Assembly: GCA_043819135.1 (NCBI GenBank)
Contig: JBDRFG010000064.1
Span: 1 to 22,344 of the forward strand
Direction of reading: 5' to 3'
Source: Candidatus Eiseniibacteriota bacterium
Lineage (GTDB): Bacteria > Joyebacterota > Joyebacteria > Joyebacterales > Joyebacteraceae
DNA length: 22,344 nt
The position numbers and the translations under genes were made by a program. Shown here one piece after another: positions 4,212-18,382 of the stretch. Each line of letters opens with the position of its first letter. Positions within the stretch are counted from its first letter, which is position 1. A model generated the notes under the pieces. The model searched no databases. It was not told the origin of the DNA and saw nothing but the letters and a program-made list of their open reading frames with translations.

Positions 4212-4772
4212 ATGCACTGGCTGCACGACGTCTCCGCGGTTCTCCCTGTCTCCCGCGATCCCCAGCTGAGGGACGCCGCCGCGATCGACACGATAGTCCT
4301 TCACTGCACGGCGATGGCTGGATGGAACGTGTGGGAGACGGCAAGGTATCACACCGGCCCCAACCACATCTGTGAGGAGGGGTGTCCGACCATCGCCTAC
4401 GCCTACTTCGTCGAGCCCGACGGGCTCCTCTACGGGTGCATCGGGAAGGACGTCCGGGGCTGGCACGTCGGGCCCTGGAACGACAGAGCGATAGGGGTCT
4501 GCATGGCGTACGAGGCCCGGGGAGAGCCGCCCCCCAGGGTTCAGCTGGAGACGGCGGCCCGGATGTGCGCCGCACTGGCCATCGAGCTTGAGCTTCCTCC
4601 CGAACGCGTGTTCGGACACCGGGAGCTCGAGGGGACGGGCTACGTCGTCGAGGACGGCGAGGAGGTCCGGTGCAAGGAGTGTCCGGGTCTGGCCATCGAC
4701 ATGGACGGGTTCCGAAGATTGGTCGCGTCGGCGATGGAGCGTCCCGAAGGACCGGAGGTGAGGGAAGCGTGA
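4212..4772 (+). CDS. N-acetylmuramoyl-L-alanine amidase, Amidase_2 (T7 lysozyme/PGRP/AmpD-like), no signal peptide
   Basis: ATG 4212 after GGAGG; Zn-ligand motifs IVLHCTA, GHRE and KECPG, plus AYAYFV and GWHVG.WNDRAIGVC. Confidence 0.88.
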   Translation: MHWLHDVSAVLPVSRDPQLRDAAAIDTIVLHCTAMAGWNVWETARYHTGPNHICEEGCPTIAYAYFVEPDGLLYGCIGKDVRGWHVGPWNDRAIGVCMAYEARGEPPPRVQLETAARMCAALAIELELPPERVFGHRELEGTGYVVEDGEEVRCKECPGLAIDMDGFRRLVASAMERPEGPEVREA

Positions 4773-6235
4773 ATCCCATTGTCCGCCGGTTGAGATGCAC
4801 TTCAACGGTCGTGGGCCTGCTGGTCGTCGTGATGTTGCAGGCCGTCGCAGCGCCTTCCGCAGCGGCGGAGGCAGCCGACCACGAGGCCCTCGGCTGGGTC
4901 GTGGATTCGGGTCTCAGACAGCCGCACCTCAGGGGCGCTACCGCCGCCATCCTTGTCGAATACGTCGCCACCGGGGAGGTGGTCTACGAGCACGATGCCG
5001 ACCGGCCTCTGATACCCGCGTCCAACATGAAGGTCATCACCGCCGCGGCCGCGTTGTCCGTGCTCGGCCCCGACTATCGATTCGAGACCGTCGTCTCGAC
5101 GGACGCTCCCGAGCTCGGTTCCACACTTTCCGGCGACCTCTACGTCCGCGGCATGGGAGACCCGTCGCTCGTCTCCGAGGAACTCTGGAAGCTCGCGGAG
5201 TCGATCCGCACGCTCGGGATAGAACGCATCGAGGGCGACCTCGTGCTGGATGCGACGTACTTCGATTCCGCCAGCACGACCTCGCGCGTGGTCGCCGATG
5301 GGGACCGCGCCTATCACGCCCGGACGGGCGCTCTCTCACTGAACTTCAACTCCATCGCCGTGCATACGACACCGTCCGAGCGCGCCGGTTCCCCCGCCGC
5401 CGTGGCGCTCTCGCCGCGGACGTCGTTCGTGGAACTCGTGGGAGGGGTGTCGACCGGGAGGTCGCGGAGCAGCTCGAACCTGAGCGTGCAACGGACGTTC
5501 ACGGGCGGGAAGAACGTGCTCACCGTGAGCGGCAGCGTTCCGGCGGGATCGGGAACGCGCGTTCACTACCGCAGCCTGGACGACGGCCTGTGGTATTTCG
5601 GCACCGTTCTGCGGGAGTTTCTCGAATCGGCGGGCGTGGAGATCGGCGGGACGGTGGAGTCGGGCGTGGCGCCGGACAACGCGCGGACGCTCGTGGTGCA
5701 CGAGTCCAAGTCGTTGTCGCTCATCGTGCGCGACCTCAACAAGTTCAGCAACAACTTCGTGGCGGAGCAGCTTCTCAAGGCGATGGCGGCGCACGTCGAC
5801 GGCGCTCCCGGGACCACCGCCGGCGGGGTCGGGGTACTGAGCGACCATCTTCGCGCGGCCGGGGCCGACAGCGGGTCGTTCCACATAGAGGACGGGTCCG
5901 GGTTCTCGCGCAACAATCGTCTGACGCCACGCGCGATAGTCGCCGTCATTCGCCGGGCGATGTCCGAGTTCACGACCTCGTACGAGTTCGCGGCGTCACT
6001 GAGCGTCAGTGGGAGCGACGGCACGCTCGGCGATCGGATGGGATATCCCGAACTCCGAAACGTCGTGCGGGCGAAGACGGGACTCCTCGACGGCGTCACC
6101 GCGATATCGGGCATCATGGAGAACGGGTCGGGCGAGGAGGTCCTGTTCTCCATAATAGTCAACGGCTTCGAATGCGAGGCCTGGCGGGTTCACGACTTCG
6201 AGCACAGCGTTCTGGCGGTCATTCGCCGGAGCTGA
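4769..6235 (+). CDS. dacB: D-alanyl-D-alanine carboxypeptidase/endopeptidase (PBP4, peptidase S13)
   Basis: Signal peptide; SxxK (PASNMK), GMGDPSL, SxN (KFSNNF), DGSGFSR.N, KTG (AKTGLL). GTG start overlaps the amidase stop (GTGA). Confidence 0.95.
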   Translation: MNPIVRRLRCTSTVVGLLVVVMLQAVAAPSAAAEAADHEALGWVVDSGLRQPHLRGATAAILVEYVATGEVVYEHDADRPLIPASNMKVITAAAALSVLGPDYRFETVVSTDAPELGSTLSGDLYVRGMGDPSLVSEELWKLAESIRTLGIERIEGDLVLDATYFDSASTTSRVVADGDRAYHARTGALSLNFNSIAVHTTPSERAGSPAAVALSPRTSFVELVGGVSTGRSRSSSNLSVQRTFTGGKNVLTVSGSVPAGSGTRVHYRSLDDGLWYFGTVLREFLESAGVEIGGTVESGVAPDNARTLVVHESKSLSLIVRDLNKFSNNFVAEQLLKAMAAHVDGAPGTTAGGVGVLSDHLRAAGADSGSFHIEDGSGFSRNNRLTPRAIVAVIRRAMSEFTTSYEFAASLSVSGSDGTLGDRMGYPELRNVVRAKTGLLDGVTAISGIMENGSGEEVLFSIIVNGFECEAWRVHDFEHSVLAVIRRS

Positions 6236-6296: not shown

Positions 6297-7439
6297 GTGG
6301 TGGGCGTTGTGCGGGCAGGGAACGTCGCGGGGCAATTCTGGACCAAGGCGCGCGGACTCGTCCTCTGGTTTCTGGCGAACTCTCTGGCCGGCGGACTTGT
6401 CGGCGCGGCCATTGCGCTCTTCTCGCAAGAAGACGGAGCGATGGCCCGATTCGTCCCGACCGGCATCCTCTTCGCCAACGCGATCGGGTTCGCGGCCGGC
6501 TTTTCCGCACGCTTCGTCCTGCCTCGCTACAGTGAGCTTCCGACCTTCATTCGTCTTCCTCTCGCCATCGTCACGCTGCTGGCCGGCGGCGCGTTCGGGT
6601 CGGCGCTCGTCATCTTCTGGAATCCGCTCGCCGTCCTGTACCAGGGGCGGCTTCTCCTTCTGCTCGTCGTGGTCTACAGCATCATCGCGGTCATCGTCGG
6701 CCTCATCATCTACAACTACGAACGACTGAGAGATCAGATAGAGGAAAGCTACGCGGCCATCGCCCGCAACAGGGTCAGGGAGGAGCGGCTCCGCGAGCTG
6801 GCGGCAAGGTCCGAACTCAAGGCGCTGAAGGCCCAGATCAACCCGCACTTTCTCTTCAACGCGCTGAACTCGATCTCTGCGCTCATCTCGACCGACCCGG
6901 ACGCCGCGCAGAAGACCCTCGAGCGACTGGCGGGGATCTTCCGCGGCACGCTGCTCGCCTCCGAGAAGGGCAGCGTGCCCTTCCGGAAGGAAATGGAGCT
7001 GGTCGACGCCTATCTGGACGTGGAGCGCGCGCGTTTCGGCACGCGTCTCAACGTCGAGGAGTCGATCGATCCCGGCGCCCGCGACGTGCCGGTCCCACCC
7101 CTGATTCTCCAGCCGCTCGTGGAGAACGCGGTGCGGCACGGGATCTCCCCTTCGGTGGAAGGAGGGACTGTCCGGATAGAGGTGAAGATCGTGGACGACT
7201 CGTTGCGGATAGTCGTTCATGACGACGGGGAGGGGACCGGTCTTATCGACCTGGAAGAGATGCTGGCGGAGGGCTACGGGCTGAGGAACGTGCGAGACCG
7301 GCTCTTCACACGGTACGGTCCGGGCGAGTGGTTCAAGTTCGAGAGCTCGCGGGAGACCGGGACGAGGGTCGAACTCGTTCTGCCGCTCTCGGGCGGGATG
7401 GGACCGGAAGGTCGGAACGGAGGGCCGAGCGAAGCATGA
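6297..7439 (+). CDS. LytS/YehU-type sensor histidine kinase with ~4-TM input domain
   Basis: ELKALKAQINPHFLFNALN (His_kinase H-box), LQPLVENAVRHG (N-box), DDGEG, GYGL.N, GT. Start GTG 6297 after GGGGAGAG is inferred. Confidence 0.93.
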   Translation: MVGVVRAGNVAGQFWTKARGLVLWFLANSLAGGLVGAAIALFSQEDGAMARFVPTGILFANAIGFAAGFSARFVLPRYSELPTFIRLPLAIVTLLAGGAFGSALVIFWNPLAVLYQGRLLLLLVVVYSIIAVIVGLIIYNYERLRDQIEESYAAIARNRVREERLRELAARSELKALKAQINPHFLFNALNSISALISTDPDAAQKTLERLAGIFRGTLLASEKGSVPFRKEMELVDAYLDVERARFGTRLNVEESIDPGARDVPVPPLILQPLVENAVRHGISPSVEGGTVRIEVKIVDDSLRIVVHDDGEGTGLIDLEEMLAEGYGLRNVRDRLFTRYGPGEWFKFESSRETGTRVELVLPLSGGMGPEGRNGGPSEA

Positions 7440-8191
7440 CGAAGTCGATGAGAGTGCTCGTGGTTGATGATGAGGAACTGGCCAGAGTGCGGATCAAGGA
7501 ACTCCTGGCCGACATTCCCGACATCGAAGTCGCGGGCGAGGCCGAGAACGGTCTCCGGGCCGTCGAGATGACGCGCGAACTCGACCCCGACGTCGTCATC
7601 CTCGACATCCAGATGCCGGGTATGGACGGTTTCGAGGTCGTGGACGCGCTGGCGAACGTTCCCCTCGTCATCTTCGCCACGGCCTTCGACGAGTACGCCA
7701 TCAAGGCCTTCGAGGTCAACTCGGTCGACTACCTGTTGAAGCCCATCTCCAGGGAACGGTTGGGCGAAGCGATGGAGCGGGCGCGGTCACTGCTGGACGA
7801 CGCCCCCGAACTCGATGACCGAATGGCCAGGCTCGCCGGGCTCATAAGGTCACGCGGGGTCCGGCGGCTTCCCGTTATGAAGGGGAAGAAGATCGTACTC
7901 GTCAACATGGACGACGTAATGTGGATCGGCGTCGAGGACGAGCTGGTCTTCGTGCACACGCGAGCCGAGAAGTACATGACGAACGCGACGATGACGGAAC
8001 TCGAGGGTCGCCTGAACACCGAGGTCTTCTTCCGAAGCCACCGCTCGTACATCGTCAATCTGAACCACGTCAAGGAGATCGTCCCGTGGTTCGGAGGCAA
8101 GTACAAGATCGTCGTCGACGATGATCCGAAGAGCGAGCTCGTGCTGTCGAGGGCGCGAGCGAAGGGACTTCGCGAGATCCTGCCCTGGTAG
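7436..8191 (+). CDS. LytTR family response regulator
   Basis: REC domain (VVDDE, LDIQMP, FATAF, YLLKP) and LytTR domain (FFRSHRSYIVNL, LSRAR). ATGA overlap with the kinase stop. Confidence 0.95.
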   Translation: MTKSMRVLVVDDEELARVRIKELLADIPDIEVAGEAENGLRAVEMTRELDPDVVILDIQMPGMDGFEVVDALANVPLVIFATAFDEYAIKAFEVNSVDYLLKPISRERLGEAMERARSLLDDAPELDDRMARLAGLIRSRGVRRLPVMKGKKIVLVNMDDVMWIGVEDELVFVHTRAEKYMTNATMTELEGRLNTEVFFRSHRSYIVNLNHVKEIVPWFGGKYKIVVDDDPKSELVLSRARAKGLREILPW

Positions 8192-8240
8192 GGGAGGCGT
8201 CCTCCGCCCGCGTGACAAACCGGCCCGATAGGCCCCTGTA

Positions 8241-8291
8241 TCTCACCCCCGCTCAGACGCAATTCACCCGTCTGATTCTACGCTTCACGGG
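8241..8291 (+). promoter_or_regulatory. Three 21-bp-periodic imperfect direct repeats, candidate LytTR binding boxes
   Basis: TCTCACCCC (8241), ATTCACCCG (8262), CTTCACGGG (8283); TCAC cores at 8243, 8264 and 8285, exactly 21 bp apart and just upstream of the predicted -35. Confidence 0.65.
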
Positions 8292-8298
8292 CCTCACA

Positions 8299-8328
8299 TT
8301 GAGGTATGGGCCGAATAACGCATACACT
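8299..8328 (+). promoter_or_regulatory. Sigma70-type promoter for the bactofilin-like gene and PP2C gene
   Basis: TTGAGG (8299-8304), 18-nt spacer, TACACT (8323-8328). Confidence 0.5.
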
Positions 8329-8375
8329 GTCAGTGTAGACACAGACGGATGGGCCACACACGCAAGGAGAGCATG

Positions 8376-9728
8376 ATGAATGCGAGGCGCATCACAGAGG
8401 CGCGACAGGTCGTCGTCGCGGTCGTTCGGGAACGCAGCATGAGTAGCCTGGCTATCAACGTGGCGATGAGCCTGCTCGTTGTGGCGGTCGCGCTTGGCAT
8501 CCTGCTGGCGCCCTCACCGGCGGGCGCGGTGGACACCGGTGAAGCCGCGCGCAGCGCAGCAGCCACCACCGTCCACGTCATGACACCCGGCCACGGTAAC
8601 ATCGACATCAAACAGACCGAATGCTACCTGGTGCCCGAGGGGGAGACCCTTGTTGCCGACCTCTACACATGGGCACAGTCCCTGGAAATCGCGGGAACGC
8701 TCGACGGTGACATCATCGCCGGCTTCAAGGAAGGCAAGATCACCGGAACCGTCACGCAGGATCTGAACGGCGCCTCCGAGACGATGCGCATAACGGGCGA
8801 GGTCGGAGACGACGTGCGGTTCGCCTGCGAGACCTTCTACCTCGACGGTCACGTCGGCGGTGACATCATCGTCGCGGCCAGGGACGTTCAGATCAGCGAA
8901 ACTGCCGTCATCGACGGCGACGCCATCATAGCGGCGGGCACGGTGACTATGGATGGAGCGATCGGCGGCAGGGCCCGCATCATGACCGGGTTCCTGGATC
9001 TGGACGGCACGATCGCGGGCAACGCTGAGATATCCACCGACGGTGGCATCAGGCTGGGTCCTAACGCCCACATCGGCGGCGATCTCGTCTACGAGGGACC
9101 GTCCAGAGTGGACATCGCAGACGGTGTGGTTGCGGGTGAAGTGACCTACAACCGGGTCGTCAAGAAGGACAGGAAAGTGGACCTCGACTTCCCCGCCGTC
9201 GGCCTCTTCTTCCACTTCCTCGGGTTCATCGCCGCTCTCGTCGCGGGCACCATCATCGTCGCGCTGACGAAAGACCACGCCAGAAAGACCGCCGAGACCA
9301 TCAGGACCAAGCCGCTCAAGAGCCTCGGTATCGGATTCGTCACCTACATCTGCATGCCTCTGATTCTACTGGTGTTGCTGGTCTTCATCCTGACGATACC
9401 GTTGATGTTCGTCGTCGGACTGGCCTACGCCATCGCGCTCTACGTCGCGAAGTTCTACTTCTCCATATGGCTCGGCAACCTGATCCTTAGAAGGGGTGGA
9501 CGGACGGACGTCTCTCCGATCCCCTCGATGCTTCTGGGTCTCACGCTTGTCTATCTCGTTACCGCCGTGCCCATCATGGGAACGCTGATCGGTATCGTCA
9601 TCATCTTCTTCGGCCTGGGCGCGCTGATGCAGCGGAAGGAGACGAGGCTGGATGCGGCTTTCGAGCCTGCGCCGGTCGTCTCGAACGGACTGCCCAACGA
9701 ATTCCCGGGTGCCGGGACCGGAGCCTAG
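8376..9728 (+). CDS. Polymer-forming (bactofilin-like) beta-helix repeat protein with N-terminal signal/TM segment and C-terminal multi-TM domain
   Basis: Repeats of the type I.G.V.GD(L/I/V) (IAGTLDGDI, ITGTVTQDL, ITGEVGDDV, LDGHVGGDI, AHIGGDLVY), a hydrophobic leader ending APSPAGA, and about 5 C-terminal TM helices. AAGGAG RBS before ATG 8376; alternative starts at 8349, 8373 and 8439. Confidence 0.85.
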   Translation: MNARRITEARQVVVAVVRERSMSSLAINVAMSLLVVAVALGILLAPSPAGAVDTGEAARSAAATTVHVMTPGHGNIDIKQTECYLVPEGETLVADLYTWAQSLEIAGTLDGDIIAGFKEGKITGTVTQDLNGASETMRITGEVGDDVRFACETFYLDGHVGGDIIVAARDVQISETAVIDGDAIIAAGTVTMDGAIGGRARIMTGFLDLDGTIAGNAEISTDGGIRLGPNAHIGGDLVYEGPSRVDIADGVVAGEVTYNRVVKKDRKVDLDFPAVGLFFHFLGFIAALVAGTIIVALTKDHARKTAETIRTKPLKSLGIGFVTYICMPLILLVLLVFILTIPLMFVVGLAYAIALYVAKFYFSIWLGNLILRRGGRTDVSPIPSMLLGLTLVYLVTAVPIMGTLIGIVIIFFGLGALMQRKETRLDAAFEPAPVVSNGLPNEFPGAGTGA

Positions 9729-9732
9729 CCCA

Positions 9733-11076
9733 ATGAGCAGAGCCAAGCGCGGAAACTCAGCTCGACCTCAGGAAGCAAGGCCGTTCAGGGCCAAGACCGT
9801 CTGGTTGTGGGCGCTGGCGAACAGCCTCGTCGGCCTTGGGGTCGGCGGTGGGATCCACCTGTTCGCCCAGGGCGACATCACGGCGCGCGGACTCGTTCCG
9901 ATGAGCATCGTGTTCGCGAACGTGATCGGTTTCGCGGCAGTTCTCACGGCGAGATTCGTGCTTCCGAAATACAGCGGGCTGCCCACGTTCCTGCGGATCC
10001 CTCTGGCGGGGCTGACGCTGGTCGCGGGGGGCGTTCTGGGAAGCGGGATCGCCATACTCGTCAACCCGCTTGTGATCCTCTACCAGCTGAGGCTCGGGTT
10101 CATGGTTCTGACGGTCAACGGCGTGCTGGCGCTGGCCGTCGGACTGATCACCTACACGTACGAGCAGATGCGGACACAGATAGAGAAGGAAGCGTCGGAA
10201 CGCGGGAAGCTGGAGCACGAGATGAACATCGCCAGGGACATCCAGATGGAACTCCTGCCCAAGACCTTCCCCAAACTCCCTGGTCTCGACATGTTCGCGT
10301 TCACCGTTCCCGCGAGACACGTCGGTGGCGACTGCTACGACGTCATCGACGTCGGTGACGGCAAGTTGGCTATCACCATAGGCGACGTCTCCGGCAAGGG
10401 AACGCCGGCCGCCATACTCATGGCGAACGTGCAGGCGGCCGTCAGGGCGCTGTCAGAGAGTCATGTGCCCCCGGTGGAACTCATCACGAGGGTGAACAGG
10501 CTCGTGCACGGCTACACGGAAGACAGCGTCTTCATCACGTTCTTCTACTCGATCCTGGATACGCGCACGGGCGAGATCGTCTACGTGAACGCGGGGCACA
10601 ACCCGCCGTGCGTGCTCAGGGCTAACGGCAACAGGGAGTATCTCGATCGTGGCGGGCTCGTCGTCGGCATCATGCCCGGTTCGGAGTACGAGGAGGGGAC
10701 GACGACACTGCGCGCGGGAGACGACCTGGTCCTCTACACCGACGGCATTACGGAAGCCGCGAACCCCGAGGACGAGATGTTCGGAGAGGAGCGGCTCGAA
10801 CAACTCCTGATCGAGCACCGTCATTCCTCAGCGCGCGAGATCGAGGAGCGGGTCTACTCGAGCATCACGAACTTCGCGGCCGGCGCGTCACAGACCGACG
10901 ATCTCACTATGGTCATCGTGAAGATGACCTCTGATGTAGTAGACGGAAACACTATCGAACTTCCGGACTCCCCCCGGATAGCCAATGGCGGGTCCCCTGC
11001 CGCGCAAGGTGCGTCTGCAACAGGCGACCTTTGGGGGCCCGCTACGGCTAACAGCCCGACGGACAGCGTGAACTGA
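9733..11076 (+). CDS. SpoIIE/RsbU-type PP2C serine phosphatase with ~4-TM input domain
   Basis: ARDIQMELLP, VGGDCYD, IGDVSGKG.PAA, FITFF, YVNAGH.PP, LYTDGITEA, FGEERL, DDLTM. Starts 4 nt after the upstream stop. Confidence 0.93.
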   Translation: MSRAKRGNSARPQEARPFRAKTVWLWALANSLVGLGVGGGIHLFAQGDITARGLVPMSIVFANVIGFAAVLTARFVLPKYSGLPTFLRIPLAGLTLVAGGVLGSGIAILVNPLVILYQLRLGFMVLTVNGVLALAVGLITYTYEQMRTQIEKEASERGKLEHEMNIARDIQMELLPKTFPKLPGLDMFAFTVPARHVGGDCYDVIDVGDGKLAITIGDVSGKGTPAAILMANVQAAVRALSESHVPPVELITRVNRLVHGYTEDSVFITFFYSILDTRTGEIVYVNAGHNPPCVLRANGNREYLDRGGLVVGIMPGSEYEEGTTTLRAGDDLVLYTDGITEAANPEDEMFGEERLEQLLIEHRHSSAREIEERVYSSITNFAAGASQTDDLTMVIVKMTSDVVDGNTIELPDSPRIANGGSPAAQGASATGDLWGPATANSPTDSVN

Positions 11077-11151: not shown

Positions 11152-11871
11152 ATGAGAGCAGTGGCCAGAGCGTGCACTTCGTTCGCGCTGCTCGCGCTTG
11201 TCGCCGTCGGGTTCTCCGCGACCATCAGGGTGTGTGGTCCTACCGACGCGCGGGCACGCGAGCTGCAGCGGGACGCGGGCGGCGCGCCGCTCGTTACCGC
11301 CGTGCTGAGTGCGTCGGAGCTCGTGACGGATGACGGACTTCCCGGTGGACCTACGGGGCGCCCGACGGAGCACGAACGACACGTTACATCGGATCGCGCT
11401 GCCACGAACGCGGAACGCGGGTCAGCGGATGCCGATACCGGCGGAGGCGGACTCGAAATGCACCATCTCTCCGTCTGGGACTCCGCCGCCGGCTCGCCAT
11501 ACGTCTATCTTTCGTTTACGCCGGTCTCGTTGGAGTCGTTCGCGGGTGAGGTGCGCTTTCGCAGAACGGTGGTGGAGGGTGAGGAGGTCGAGGTGGCGGA
11601 CGTCGCGCCGACCCTGGACGAGGCCCACATCCGCATACAGCTGGACAGCAAACCCGTGGATGTGGCGTCGCTTCAGTGGTACTATGCCGGGTACGGTGAC
11701 CTGGGTGGCGCCGACGTGAAGTACATGCCGGTCTGTCTGATTCGCGTCGAGCGTCCGGATCTCTCGGCCGGAGAGCACGACGTTCACGTGAGGATAGAGG
11801 ACGTCGATACCGGCGCCACTGGCGACGGAAGCGCGACGCTCACATGCGGAGCGAGGGTCAGAGAGCTCTAG
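11152..11871 (+). CDS. Hypothetical exported protein, possible C-terminal beta-sandwich domain
   Basis: AAGGAGG RBS; N-terminal hydrophobic segment; low-complexity linker; beta-rich C-terminus (LSAGEHDVHVRIEDVDTG). Confidence 0.7.
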   Translation: MRAVARACTSFALLALVAVGFSATIRVCGPTDARARELQRDAGGAPLVTAVLSASELVTDDGLPGGPTGRPTEHERHVTSDRAATNAERGSADADTGGGGLEMHHLSVWDSAAGSPYVYLSFTPVSLESFAGEVRFRRTVVEGEEVEVADVAPTLDEAHIRIQLDSKPVDVASLQWYYAGYGDLGGADVKYMPVCLIRVERPDLSAGEHDVHVRIEDVDTGATGDGSATLTCGARVREL

Positions 11872-13892: not shown

Positions 13893-15941
13893 CTACCTGA
13901 CCAGCAGGATCTTCCGGGACGCGAAATCCGCGGCCGCAGTCAGTCTGACGAAGTAGACACCCGACGCGACCGGCTCGCCGCCCGCGCCCGTTCCGTTCCA
14001 GATCACCTCGTGCGTTCCCGCAGGCGTTTCGCGGTCCACGAGCGTCGCGACCCTTCTGCCTGCGATGTCGAACATGGCGACCTCGGCGTGTCCCGCGGTC
14101 GGCATCGAGAACGACAGCGACACGCCCCCTCCGACCAGCTCGGTCGGGGCGCCGAGCGCCACGACCGAGGGGATGCCGTCTTCAGGCACTCCGGTCGAGG
14201 TCTCGGTCACGTACTTGAGAATCCAGTTGCCCGGGTCGAACGAGACGTCGGTCACCGGGGCGCCGGCGTCGAAGAAGAAGTCCTGGCTCCACTGGTCGTT
14301 CCACGCGACGACCAGCTCGTCACCGGCGGTCGTGTGGATCTTGATGTCGATCGGCATGGTGAAGAGACCGGCGTCCGACTGGACCTGTTCGACGTGGACC
14401 ATGACTCCGTAGGGCGGTCCCTGACTGCCGGCGATCCAGGACCACCTGTAATCGGGCCGGTTCTCACCGTAGATCCAGGGCAGGAAGAACCAGTCGAGGC
14501 TGCCACCGTAGTGCGATTCCAGTATGGACTGGAGCTCGGAGGTGATCGCTGAGTCGTATGCGTAAGTGGCGCCGTACTCCGCCAGCGCGGACTGGAGACG
14601 GTCGATGGGGTAGTGGTCCACCACTCCGTCCTGCAGCGCGAGAACTCGGCGCAGCATGTGAAGCACGAGCGCGCCCTTGTCGTAGACCGTGCGGCTGAAG
14701 GTCGTCCACGGATCGTAGATGGGACCGTCGAAGTAGCCGTACGAGTCGTACGATTCGACGTAGTCGTCGTAGTCGGCCTCACCTCCGAGGTGCTCGAACC
14801 AGAGCGCCTCCGAGTAGCTTGCGAACCCCTCGTTCAGCCATATGTCTTCCCATGTGGCGCATGTGATCCAGTCGCCCCACCACTGGTGGCCCAGCTCGTG
14901 TACGAGGATCCAGTCGTAGTAGTGGTCTCCACGAATGAGCACTCTGCCGTAGCTCGTGCAGGTCTGGTGCTCCATCGCGCCGCCCCAGGGGAAGACAGCG
15001 TGGCCGTAGCGCTCATCAATGAACGGGTACTCGCCGAAGACCTCCGCCAGCGCGCCGATGGCCGCCGCCGTTATGTTGAGGTCCTCCATGGCGTTCGACA
15101 GGTGTTCAGGGTAGACGTAGTTCTCGATGGGCATCGTGTCGCGGCCGTAGGTGTAGTAGTCGGTCCAGCTGGAGTAGTTGGTGACGGCCACCGAGATGAG
15201 ATAGGTCGTGATAGGGTAACTCTCGAACCACGTGTATGTCTTCGTCGCTCCATTGTCGACCTCGGACACCAGCATTCCGTTCGAGACAGCGACGTAGGCG
15301 TCGTCGACGGTCAGGGCGATCCTGGCGGAGTCGGCCTTGTCGGCTGGCGTGTCCTTGCAGGGCCACCACTGACGCGCGCCGATGGGTTCCGAGAGGCTCG
15401 ATATTATGGGAATCGTGTTGTGCGTCGAGAAGTTGAGGGCGTCGTCGACCGGCGCACCGTGATAAGTGACCGACACCTCAAACTGGCCGCCGGTGTTCAC
15501 CGTACTGTTGAGGCTGACGCTGATGCGGTCGCTGCCGTGCGAATACGAGGCGGGAGCGCCATCGTGCGCAACCGAATCGACCGTCATGTTGTCGTACAGG
15601 TCGAGGATCACAGTAGTCAGGCCGTCGACCGTGCTCGTCGCGAGCATGGTCACCGTTCCGACCACCGTCTCCGGTCCCTCATCTATCTCGATGTCAATGT
15701 CGTAGTAGCAGGCGTCGTAGTCGTCCTGAGACGCGCGCTCCGCCGTCGGCGGCAGGACGAGCGCGGCCTGGAGCTTCTCGAACGCCGCCTGCTTGGGTTC
15801 CCACAGAATGCTCCGCGGGTCGTCGTCGGGCCGCCTGTCATCCAGGTAGGCGGGACGGGCGGTCGCGGTCGTCGTCACGGCGATCAGGCAGGTGAGGATC
15901 ACCACCGCTCCGACGAGCGTCGTGCGAAAGATCCTTGTCAT
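13893..15941 (-). CDS. Exported M1 family zinc aminopeptidase with C-terminal FlgD-Ig-like domain
   Basis: AAGGAGGAGG RBS; signal peptide; GARQWWPCKD.P.DKA, GGAMEH, HELGHQWWGD-x-WLNEGFASY (HExxH-x18-E), VYDKG; tail FDIAGRRVATL...WNG...VASGVYFVRL. Confidence 0.95.
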   Translation of the reverse strand: MTRIFRTTLVGAVVILTCLIAVTTTATARPAYLDDRRPDDDPRSILWEPKQAAFEKLQAALVLPPTAERASQDDYDACYYDIDIEIDEGPETVVGTVTMLATSTVDGLTTVILDLYDNMTVDSVAHDGAPASYSHGSDRISVSLNSTVNTGGQFEVSVTYHGAPVDDALNFSTHNTIPIISSLSEPIGARQWWPCKDTPADKADSARIALTVDDAYVAVSNGMLVSEVDNGATKTYTWFESYPITTYLISVAVTNYSSWTDYYTYGRDTMPIENYVYPEHLSNAMEDLNITAAAIGALAEVFGEYPFIDERYGHAVFPWGGAMEHQTCTSYGRVLIRGDHYYDWILVHELGHQWWGDWITCATWEDIWLNEGFASYSEALWFEHLGGEADYDDYVESYDSYGYFDGPIYDPWTTFSRTVYDKGALVLHMLRRVLALQDGVVDHYPIDRLQSALAEYGATYAYDSAITSELQSILESHYGGSLDWFFLPWIYGENRPDYRWSWIAGSQGPPYGVMVHVEQVQSDAGLFTMPIDIKIHTTAGDELVVAWNDQWSQDFFFDAGAPVTDVSFDPGNWILKYVTETSTGVPEDGIPSVVALGAPTELVGGGVSLSFSMPTAGHAEVAMFDIAGRRVATLVDRETPAGTHEVIWNGTGAGGEPVASGVYFVRLTAAADFASRKILLVR

Positions 15942-16165: not shown

Positions 16166-17623
16166 ATGTCCGCTGAACCCTCACGAACAGGAAGCCTGCC
16201 TGCCATTCTGCTGCTCCTCATCGCGTCGACGGGGACTCCCGCTGTCGCCATGGACGCCCGGACCGAGGACGCGCTCCTCAAGATAGAGGCCGTCCTCGAG
16301 ATGGCCGAGTTCAGCGATGACCTCTGGCCGTCCTGGGACATCTCCGAGACGCCGTTCGCGGTGCGCGGCCCCGACAGCAGCTGCTACCTCATCAACCACC
16401 CGCGACCACCGGCACACTTCCAGCGAGTCAGGGAGAAATCGTCGCTCCGCACGGCCGTCTATCGCGCGGAAGCGTGGGACGTACCACCTGGTGAGATCTG
16501 TCTCGTTGAGGGTGTTTCCACGGCGGTGCTCGGTCTCCGGGGGCTGGCGGGGGAGGTGGTCCCGTTGGCGTTCGAGGCATCGTTCCGGGCGCACGGCGCG
16601 GAAGCCTGTGCGGGGAAGATGGAGCCGATATATCTCATGTCGGGCTACCCCGTGGACGCCTGGAACCTTGTCCTCGCGGACATCGAGTGCCGTCTTCTTC
16701 ACAGAGTGGCTCTCGCGCCCGATGATTCGCTCGCCCTGTGCGTTCGCGAGTTCGTGAGCGTGCGGCGGCACCGCCGTCTGAGGATGGGCGGACGCTACGG
16801 TGAGTTCGAGCGCCGGATCGAGTTCAGCGAAGGAATTCCGGCGTACCTGGCGGAGCGGTGCAGGCGGGAGGCGGAGCCACATCTGGGCGGCAGGTTCGGC
16901 CCGCGTCTCAGTGACGCTCTCGGAGAGCCGGGCGCCCTCGAGCGGTGCTTTCCCGAGTCCCCGGGTCTCGACTGGTATCGTGGCGAGCGCTTCCGGTGGA
17001 CGGGCGCCGTGCTCTGCGGCGTGATGGACCGATTCGACCCCGACTGGAAGACGGAGGTGATGCTCGACTGCGCCGATCCGTTCGAGATCATGTTGCGGCA
17101 AGTGAAGGGTCGTTTGCCGCCGGTCCGCAGTGTGCTCGACCGATTCGGGTACGATGAACTCGTGGCCGGCATGACCACCACGATCGAGGAGTCCAAGAGC
17201 AACGCTGAGCGTCTCTTTGAGGGCATCGTGCGGAGCGGCGGCCCGACCCTGTCAGTCAGCACACATCTGCTCGCAGGCGGGGAGATCAGTTTCGACCCGT
17301 CGCGGATAGAGAGGGTCGACGCACATCGGGAGGTGCACACCGGTTTCCTCAAGATCGAGTACTCGGGGGGCACGCACCTCTACGCAATTGGGATTCCGGC
17401 CGCCGTCATCCTCGGGGATGACGAGTTCGACGTCCGCACGGTGATCATGACTGCTCCGAAGGAATGCGCGATCGTGCTGGACGGGGAGGAGTTCGAGGTC
17501 AGGAACGGCGTCCACGAGTTCACCCGGTCACTGTCGGTCGCCGCGGAGGGCCTCTCTCTGGAGGCCATGTCCGGCACCGTCATGGTGGGAGCGAGTGGAG
17601 TCTCGTTCATCCTGTTTCGATAG
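16166..17623 (+). CDS. Hypothetical exported protein, possible degenerate gluzincin-like fold
   Basis: GGGAGG RBS, own promoter, signal peptide (LPAILLLLIASTGTPAVA); contains E.SEGIPAYLAE but no HExxH. Confidence 0.75.
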   Translation: MSAEPSRTGSLPAILLLLIASTGTPAVAMDARTEDALLKIEAVLEMAEFSDDLWPSWDISETPFAVRGPDSSCYLINHPRPPAHFQRVREKSSLRTAVYRAEAWDVPPGEICLVEGVSTAVLGLRGLAGEVVPLAFEASFRAHGAEACAGKMEPIYLMSGYPVDAWNLVLADIECRLLHRVALAPDDSLALCVREFVSVRRHRRLRMGGRYGEFERRIEFSEGIPAYLAERCRREAEPHLGGRFGPRLSDALGEPGALERCFPESPGLDWYRGERFRWTGAVLCGVMDRFDPDWKTEVMLDCADPFEIMLRQVKGRLPPVRSVLDRFGYDELVAGMTTTIEESKSNAERLFEGIVRSGGPTLSVSTHLLAGGEISFDPSRIERVDAHREVHTGFLKIEYSGGTHLYAIGIPAAVILGDDEFDVRTVIMTAPKECAIVLDGEEFEVRNGVHEFTRSLSVAAEGLSLEAMSGTVMVGASGVSFILFR

Positions 17624-17677: not shown

Positions 17678-18382
17678 TTACCTGTCCGTTTCGTACATGT
17701 TCTTGATCGTCGTCCAGGCCACCGTCTCATCCCGCGGCACGAGCTGGCACTCGAACGTCGCGTAGGCGCTGAGGTTTCCCGGCAGGTCGAGGTCGCGCAT
17801 GTCCGTCCATCCCTTTCCGCGGTCGTTCCATGACTGCAGGGCCTCGCACGCGCCGGGGGCCGCGACCATGGCGGGAAGCTCATCGCACGTGTCGAGGAAC
17901 CGGAGGGTCGCGAAGCACGGCCCGTCGATCCTTGGTGAGTCGAGGGGCATGGCCACCGTCACGGCCCAGAGCCCGGCCGGCCTGAACGGTCCGACCGTCT
18001 TCTGCTCGGAGACGGCCACAAGACGTCCCTGCTCGTGCCTTCCCGGGCCCGCCGGGTCCGCCTCATGGATCTCCGCCTGCACGGTCAAGACGCAGTCGTT
18101 CTTCTCCTCCCAGTAGAGGTACATCGTGACACTGACGGGCTGCCATCCGCCCTCGCACCCGCCGCACTCGGCCGGACCACAGAAGACCCTGTATGATTCG
18201 TGGCCGGTGAAGCGGTCCTCGAGTGTCCAGTAGTAGTTCGTCTGCCCGTTCTTGCAGACGTCTCCAGGCTGACTGAGTGCAACGGAACCCGGCAGCTCGC
18301 CGGACGGGGCGCCGTGAGAGGCGACAGCCGGCGCGCAGACCACCAGAAACGCGATCGCGATCAGTATCTTCGTCGATGTCAT
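17678..18382 (-). CDS. Hypothetical exported Cys-rich protein with C-terminal W-x-x-I-K-x-x-Y tail
   Basis: Signal peptide MTSTKILIAIAFLVVCAPAVA; several Cys (CGPAECGGC); ends ETVAWTTIKNMYETDR. Confidence 0.78.
   Translation of the reverse strand: MTSTKILIAIAFLVVCAPAVASHGAPSGELPGSVALSQPGDVCKNGQTNYYWTLEDRFTGHESYRVFCGPAECGGCEGGWQPVSVTMYLYWEEKNDCVLTVQAEIHEADPAGPGRHEQGRLVAVSEQKTVGPFRPAGLWAVTVAMPLDSPRIDGPCFATLRFLDTCDELPAMVAAPGACEALQSWNDRGKGWTDMRDLDLPGNLSAYATFECQLVPRDETVAWTTIKNMYETDR

Follow-up and report, generated by a model that had tools for sequence, protein, structure and literature searches.

A four-helix membrane domain shared by a LytS-type histidine kinase and a SpoIIE-type phosphatase in a predicted signalling cassette of Candidatus Eiseniibacteriota

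Background

Does a membrane domain that heads both a histidine kinase and a neighbouring protein phosphatase pass one signal to two pathways? The question is raised by a locus of a Candidatus Eiseniibacteriota bacterium (assembly GCA_043819135.1), in which a LytS-type kinase, a response regulator, a protein resembling halofilin B and an RsbU/SpoIIE-type phosphatase of the PP2C class follow one another on the forward strand. The window, by which we mean the whole stretch of DNA that was analysed, consists of 22,344 nucleotides (positions 1 to 22,344 of contig JBDRFG010000064.1). A first-pass annotation had proposed that kinase and phosphatase begin with copies of one membrane domain outside any named family, and that either one signal is read in parallel by a His-Asp and a Ser/Thr pathway or the two proteins form a heterodimer. 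The genes of the cassette and the two domain copies are as follows.

6297..7439, + strand: LytS-type sensor histidine kinase, about 380 amino acids (PF06580, E 1.7e-25, and HATPase_c; H, N, G1 and G2 boxes)
6363..6743, + strand: kinase copy of the unnamed four-helix membrane input domain (71/127 against the phosphatase copy; no family match)
7436..8191, + strand: REC-LytTR response regulator (PF00072, PF04397; VDDE, LDIQMP and KP motifs)
8349..9728, likely start 8376, + strand: halofilin-B-like protein with a predicted export signal, a bactofilin beta-helix (PF04519) and a DUF8173 membrane domain
9733..11076, + strand: RsbU/SpoIIE-type PP2C phosphatase, 447 amino acids (PF07228, E 1.3e-54; GGDCYD, DVSGKG, YTDG and DDLT motifs intact)
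9805..10185, + strand: phosphatase copy of the same domain (alignment to the kinase copy; AlphaFold2 model)

The kinase probably starts at a GTG at 6297 or 6300 (the longest open reading frame runs from 6264, and orthologues have 378-382 amino acids). Its stop codon overlaps the start of the regulator gene (ATGA), and the PP2C gene begins 4 nt behind the halofilin-like gene. The regulator matches the BtsR model with E 1.6e-51, which lies below the cut-off of that model.

The shared domain and its two copies

Pairwise alignment of the two domains is gapless, with 71 of 127 residues identical, and thus agrees with the count made by hand in the first-pass annotation (BLASTP gives E 4e-43 and 70 identities, because the first TTG is taken as M). 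The likeness ends at the catalytic domains, as had been claimed: on both sides of the domain only 0-1 residues in 10 are identical. At the DNA level the copies agree at 233 of 381 positions (80/127 first, 95/127 second and 58/127 third codon positions), and the match is therefore one of protein sequence and not that of a recent DNA copy. A tblastn search of the genome found no third copy (next match E 0.18).

The phylum of the host, here called lineage A, is represented by 31 genomes of a single family, and close relatives carry the label Candidatus Eisenbacteria at NCBI. The domain is present in 30 of these genomes and has at least two matches in 27; the three with a single match are only 57-77% complete. 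The halofilin-like gene was found in the same 30 genomes. The sole genome with neither (G004) is 90% complete, reflecting a loss or an unassembled region. The order kinase, regulator, halofilin, PP2C is found in 18 of 20 regions, and the remaining two stop inside the halofilin gene; in one of the 18 an assembly gap (100 N) interrupts the PP2C gene.

Across 15 genomes the kinase and PP2C copies form separate clades (support 100/100) and are equally conserved, with a mean of 64% for each. The ratio of nonsynonymous to synonymous substitution (dN/dS) is 0.04-0.37 in 16 orthologue pairs. The two copies within a genome are on average 48% identical, compared with 46% across genomes, so that no homogenisation within genomes is seen. 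Judged from these comparisons, both domain copies are old and under purifying selection. The fusion to a PP2C could have turned out to be peculiar to this genome and unconstrained, which would have told against the first-pass annotation, and it is instead widespread and conserved. Recent duplication or gene conversion in the host genome is ruled out by the third codon positions together with the separate clades.

Family, fold and topology of the domain

None of 30 aligned domain copies exceeded a curated Pfam cut-off (best E 0.006, to ECF-ribofla_trS, in 2 members), none of 5 matched NCBIfam at E<=0.05, and the sequences of the PDB gave no match. The 5TM-5TMR_LYT domain of classical LytS (PF07694) and GAF were hit neither by the kinase nor, at E<=1, by the 30 domain copies. 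The Atlas placed the domain in unnamed clusters only (0.89-0.90). A search of plasmids for the domain gave no match. These results uphold the view that the domain differs from that of classical LytS and belongs to no named family.

An AlphaFold2 model built from 30 sequences has helices at residues 2-21, 28-57, 62-87, 89-94 and 96-127, four of them long and one short, with a predicted local distance difference test score (pLDDT) of 68. Foldseek with this model returned nothing at E<=0.001, and the best match of a VIA-align fold search (Z 8.8) was to unspecific helical bundles. This absence of a fold match does not establish a new fold. S-components, which have a six-helix fold, were among the Foldseek matches only at E>2. 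The distribution of basic residues places the N-terminus and loop 2 inside, and the outer loops have about 10 residues, so that we infer four membrane passes with both ends of the domain on the cytoplasmic side.

Two sets of known kinases were tried as relatives and rejected. The N-terminus of Escherichia coli BtsS reached 0.2% in hhalign and, like the Pfam and NCBIfam searches, gave no known sensor family to which the domain could be assigned; four-helix LytS-type kinases of Vibrio and Plesiomonas were colinear but not significant (hhalign E 0.1-0.2). One distant carrier, P0143, matches at 96%, and the domain family may therefore be wider than what we found. It is among seven more distant kinase and PP2C carriers from other unnamed lineages (P0119, P0121, P0127, P0135, P0139, P0142 and P0143).

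A profile built from the domain was searched against 1.84 billion representatives and gave 50 hits, 49 of which were scanned for partner domains. His_kinase accompanied 11 and SpoIIE 7 (one hit had both), two had stray partners and 30, mostly fragments, had none. The named partners are thus almost only the two that the window itself displays.

Operator and gene order in three lineages

The gap between the regulator gene and the halofilin-like gene contains two predicted elements.

8241..8291, + strand: predicted LytTR operator, made up of three imperfect direct repeats with a period of 21 bp, at 8241, 8262 and 8283 (conserved across genera; ranked genome-wide by matrix)
8299..8328, + strand: predicted sigma70-type promoter, TTGAGG-18 nt-TACACT, right behind the repeats (-35 and -10 positions conserved in aligned loci)

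The operator matrix for lineage A draws on 14 loci from other genera, with two dropped for want of an anchor. With it, the site at 8241-8291 ranks first among 5,351,770 positions of the genome (23.5, against 18.4 for the next), and the spacing of 21 bp outscores alternatives of 17-25. The promoter is too weak for a consensus scan. Direct repeats two helical turns apart and upstream of the -35 element are what is expected of an operator of the LytS/LytR family, as far as the sequence can tell, and triple direct repeats in this position have been described as an activating LytTR arrangement (PMC11347149). Genus g3 (L038, L042, L045) has an additional unit of about 21 bp in the gap, giving four repeats instead of three.

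A point that the first-pass annotation had missed follows from this arrangement: the halofilin-like gene and the PP2C gene are 4 nt apart and make up an operon with a LytTR-type operator at its front, so that the kinase and PP2C arms are predicted to be wired in series in the host.

Two further lineages carry the domain. Lineage B is an Acidobacteriota-like metagenome group, so assigned from one PP2C relative named Ca. Polarisedimenticolia. Of the 49 metagenome loci that a motif scan returned, 47 have the domain and 25 have typed copies of both PP2C and kinase. The order here is PP2C, kinase, regulator, halofilin in all 14 loci that reach the halofilin gene, with varying flanks (the regulator was placed in four loci after allowing for the boundaries of open reading frames). 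Lineage C was found among 370 sampled genomes outside the host phylum, two of which matched the domain, both members of another phylum. These genomes, G095 (a single closed contig, 96% complete) and G258, have the order kinase, regulator, extracytoplasmic function (ECF) sigma factor, with one domain copy and no PP2C copy. A halofilin gene follows the sigma gene in G258, and none of full length is present in G095.

A triple 21-bp direct repeat of the LytTR-operator type follows the regulator gene in all three lineages. The repeat unit of lineage B is related to that of lineage A but different. A matrix of its middle repeat alone peaks 21 positions upstream and 20-21 downstream, and with left-one-out matrices the site ranks first in 16 of 16 loci (one further locus was too short), with nothing comparable ahead of the PP2C gene. 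The lineage-B matrix also selects the site before the ECF sigma gene, which lies directly behind the operator, in both lineage-C genomes.

The kinase and PP2C copies of lineage B are 32% identical, with E39 in the PP2C copy and N39 in the kinase copy. Among 32 cross-lineage rows, the only residues invariant throughout are W2, G10, P54, L72, G79, P88 and G113; position 39 is N in 26 and E in 6, and position 105 is mostly N or D. The polar motifs RF.LP.YS and NP...YQ, said earlier to be preserved, are so within the host phylum but for the most part not between lineages. Domain trees group by lineage (87/97 and 90/90), as independent duplications in each lineage might produce, although a single old duplication is not rejected (approximately unbiased test, p 0.11).

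Upstream, the cassette has a conserved neighbour in the host phylum only:

4670..6235, + strand: DacB/PBP4 D-Ala-D-Ala carboxypeptidase (PF02113), immediately upstream of the kinase

DacB occupies this place in 20 of 20 loci of the phylum and in none of 51 loci of the other lineages. An amidase is likewise found upstream of the kinase in 15 of the 20 (the others being cut short) and in 0 of the 51.

The halofilin-like protein and the sigma-factor side

In the Atlas the third gene of the cassette falls with Bactofilin and DUF8173 clusters (0.96). Its product has a signal peptide (judged by eye), a bactofilin beta-helix and a multi-pass membrane domain, which is the layout published for halofilin B. 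Halofilin B (HalB) of Haloferax volcanii is described as a beta-helix on the outer surface, borne by a multi-pass membrane domain, which localises or responds to membrane curvature; proteins like it, 2,304 in number, are widespread and common in bacteria (10.1101/2024.01.22.576759). The cassette protein shares with it the export signal, the outer beta-helix, the multi-pass membrane domain and a disordered tail. It differs in its longer beta-helix and in lying under a dedicated signalling cassette, of which the available part of that description makes no mention for HalB.

The host genome has two STAS/RsbW pairs and in all only two SpoIIE phosphatases. The second of these, with an FHA/GAF-like N-terminus (by eye), could serve the pairs too. 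The pairs lie on contigs C43 and C24, unlinked to the cassette, and the latter includes an RsbW-STAS-sigma cluster. Positions 14245-20632 of C24 encode a Ser/Thr kinase with TPR-like repeats, RsbW, STAS, an ECF-sized sigma factor and a putative anti-sigma factor, and then a protein with many copies of an SPVWSQPY motif that runs off the end of the contig. We regard this stretch as a candidate target locus of the PP2C. Another STAS-domain gene (genome G000, contig C141, about 6994-8876, L060) lies between MraZ-like and RsmH-like genes, named by eye, and heads an apparent cell-division cluster, an odd place for a protein resembling anti-anti-sigma factors.

Discussion

We propose, at about even chances, that one membrane cue is read by both proteins, the kinase and regulator inducing the halofilin-like gene and the PP2C freeing a sigma factor. 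The cue is probably a state of the membrane or envelope. The kinase would phosphorylate the adjacent LytTR regulator, which would bind the triple repeat, probably its sole target in the host genome, and activate the genes behind it, namely an operon of halofilin and PP2C. Since the PP2C gene lies behind the operator, its product would be made after the kinase has fired and then be gated by the same cue, as in a feed-forward AND gate. It would dephosphorylate a STAS anti-anti-sigma factor and so, through partner switching, set the sigma factor free. In lineage B, the PP2C, encoded upstream and without an operator, would act in parallel, and in lineage C the release of sigma may have been replaced by an ECF sigma gene induced directly behind the operator. 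The parallel reading of one cue by His-Asp and Ser/Thr pathways, put forward in the first-pass annotation, fits these data.

Several points weigh against this proposal. The argument for a common cue comes from the likeness of the two domains, and the copies are only 48% identical within genomes, no more than across them (46%), and 32% in lineage B; given also E39 against N39, the two may have come to differ in specificity. Only the host phylum has the feed-forward wiring, and lineages B and C lack the DacB link. The presumed substrate of the PP2C lies outside the locus, its link to STAS and sigma factors being drawn from what is known of the family. Membership of the halofilin-like protein in the HalB group is likely, by an architecture set beside the description of HalB rather than aligned to it. 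The lineage-A repeat matrix missed the repeats of lineages B and C, and the operator sequence therefore differs by lineage; the ranking in lineage B is partly circular, because a short pattern had served to find its sites in the first place.

Divergence of the two domains could go further. After an old duplication they may respond to different, related cues, or the PP2C copy may serve mainly as a membrane anchor that co-localises the phosphatase. Position 105 is D or S in kinases and N in PP2Cs, the lineage-B PP2C has E39 and W6, and the low identity between copies in lineage B and the lack of homogenisation point the same way. Constraint on the PP2C copy nevertheless equals that on the kinase copy (64% mean identity for each over the 15 genomes), and the two genes have been kept together through rearrangement, so that we think this reading quite unlikely. 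The heterodimer of the first-pass annotation, in which the PP2C would tune the kinase or the reverse through the shared domain, draws on the fact that membrane domains which are homologous can retain the interface of a homodimer and on the adjacent, apparently translationally coupled PP2C and kinase genes of lineage B. Both catalytic classes work as homodimers, however, the copies do not covary within genomes, and G095 and G258 have the kinase without any PP2C copy; as the kinase occurs alone, once on a closed contig, an obligate heterodimer loses ground, and we consider this explanation very improbable.

The halofilin-like protein might itself be a shared 'ligand', its membrane domain binding both four-helix domains so as to feed back on the kinase and switch the PP2C. 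Accessory membrane proteins act in this manner on intramembrane-sensing kinases, as in LiaFSR and the inhibitors of LytTR regulatory systems (LRS). Halofilin and domain co-occur in the same 30 of 31 genomes and are adjacent in all three lineages; the sensor is nearly without outer loops; and Gly and Pro make up most of its residues that are invariant across lineages, as for a packing surface. Yet G095 keeps kinase, regulator, operator and sigma without a full-length halofilin, which argues that halofilin is not required, and halofilin-like proteins occur widely (2,304 according to 10.1101/2024.01.22.576759), whereas the domain occurred in only 2 of the 370 sampled outside genomes. We hold this possibility to be doubtful, though worth keeping in mind. 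Somewhat bolder, and unlikely in our judgement, is a dedicated membrane-shape circuit, in which the four-helix domain would read curvature or tension directly or via halofilin, and the kinase and phosphatase copies would together make a feed-forward gate, first for building the halofilin scaffold and then for the release of sigma. Such a circuit, if real, would be the first regulator known for bacterial halofilins.

The catalytic parts of the cassette are all standard. With LytS/LytR-family systems (LytSR, BtsSR, YpdAB) it shares the PF06580 core beside a REC-LytTR regulator and a direct-repeat operator upstream of the -35 element. Such systems typically target a carboxylate transporter or a holin-like gene; the cassette differs in its paired PP2C and predicted halofilin-like target, and its kinase lacks 5TM-5TMR_LYT and GAF, having instead the 127-residue four-helix domain, unrelated to the input of BtsS. 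The phosphatase resembles RsbU/SpoIIE PP2Cs in its SpoIIE domain, intact metal-binding motifs and coiled linker, and in the STAS and RsbW-like genes found elsewhere in the genome. Unlike those, it has an input in common with the neighbouring kinase and a locus without STAS, RsbW or sigma genes; no SigB-sized group-3 sigma lies beside either STAS/RsbW pair, and one pair adjoins the ECF-sized sigma.

The 5TMR-LYT domain has been reported in fusions with kinases as well as with SpoIIE phosphatases (PMC11109136), and the principle of a shared sensor domain is therefore already known. Compared with membrane sensor domains that have several outputs (5TMR-LYT, MASE, MHYT), the present cassette holds both fusions together, the named outputs are almost only two, and transcription of one copy is predicted to depend on the other. 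What appears to be new is the domain, the paired cassette and the predicted LytTR control of a halofilin-like gene, no description of which was found in the open-access literature, supplements not being covered. The importance of the system is limited by its standard catalytic parts, the precedent for a shared sensor domain and its uncultured hosts. It nonetheless adds to the membrane sensor domains a new one that has two natural read-outs and comes with a predicted operator, which should make a reporter screen for the cue straightforward, and it gives the bacterial halofilin-B-like proteins, so far little studied, a link to a signalling input. The three lineages can be regarded as natural rewirings, with the PP2C in series, in parallel, or replaced by a directly induced ECF sigma factor.

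Other genes of the window

Open reading frames at 11152-11871, 16166-17623 (+) and 17678-18382 (-) matched nothing in Pfam or NCBIfam; the second and third are conserved next to the cassette throughout the phylum, and the first within the genus only. An M1-type aminopeptidase with an FlgD-like C-terminal tail (13893-15941, - strand) is found at this place in only some relatives, and some cassettes of lineage B (L109) have M1 peptidases at their flanks too.

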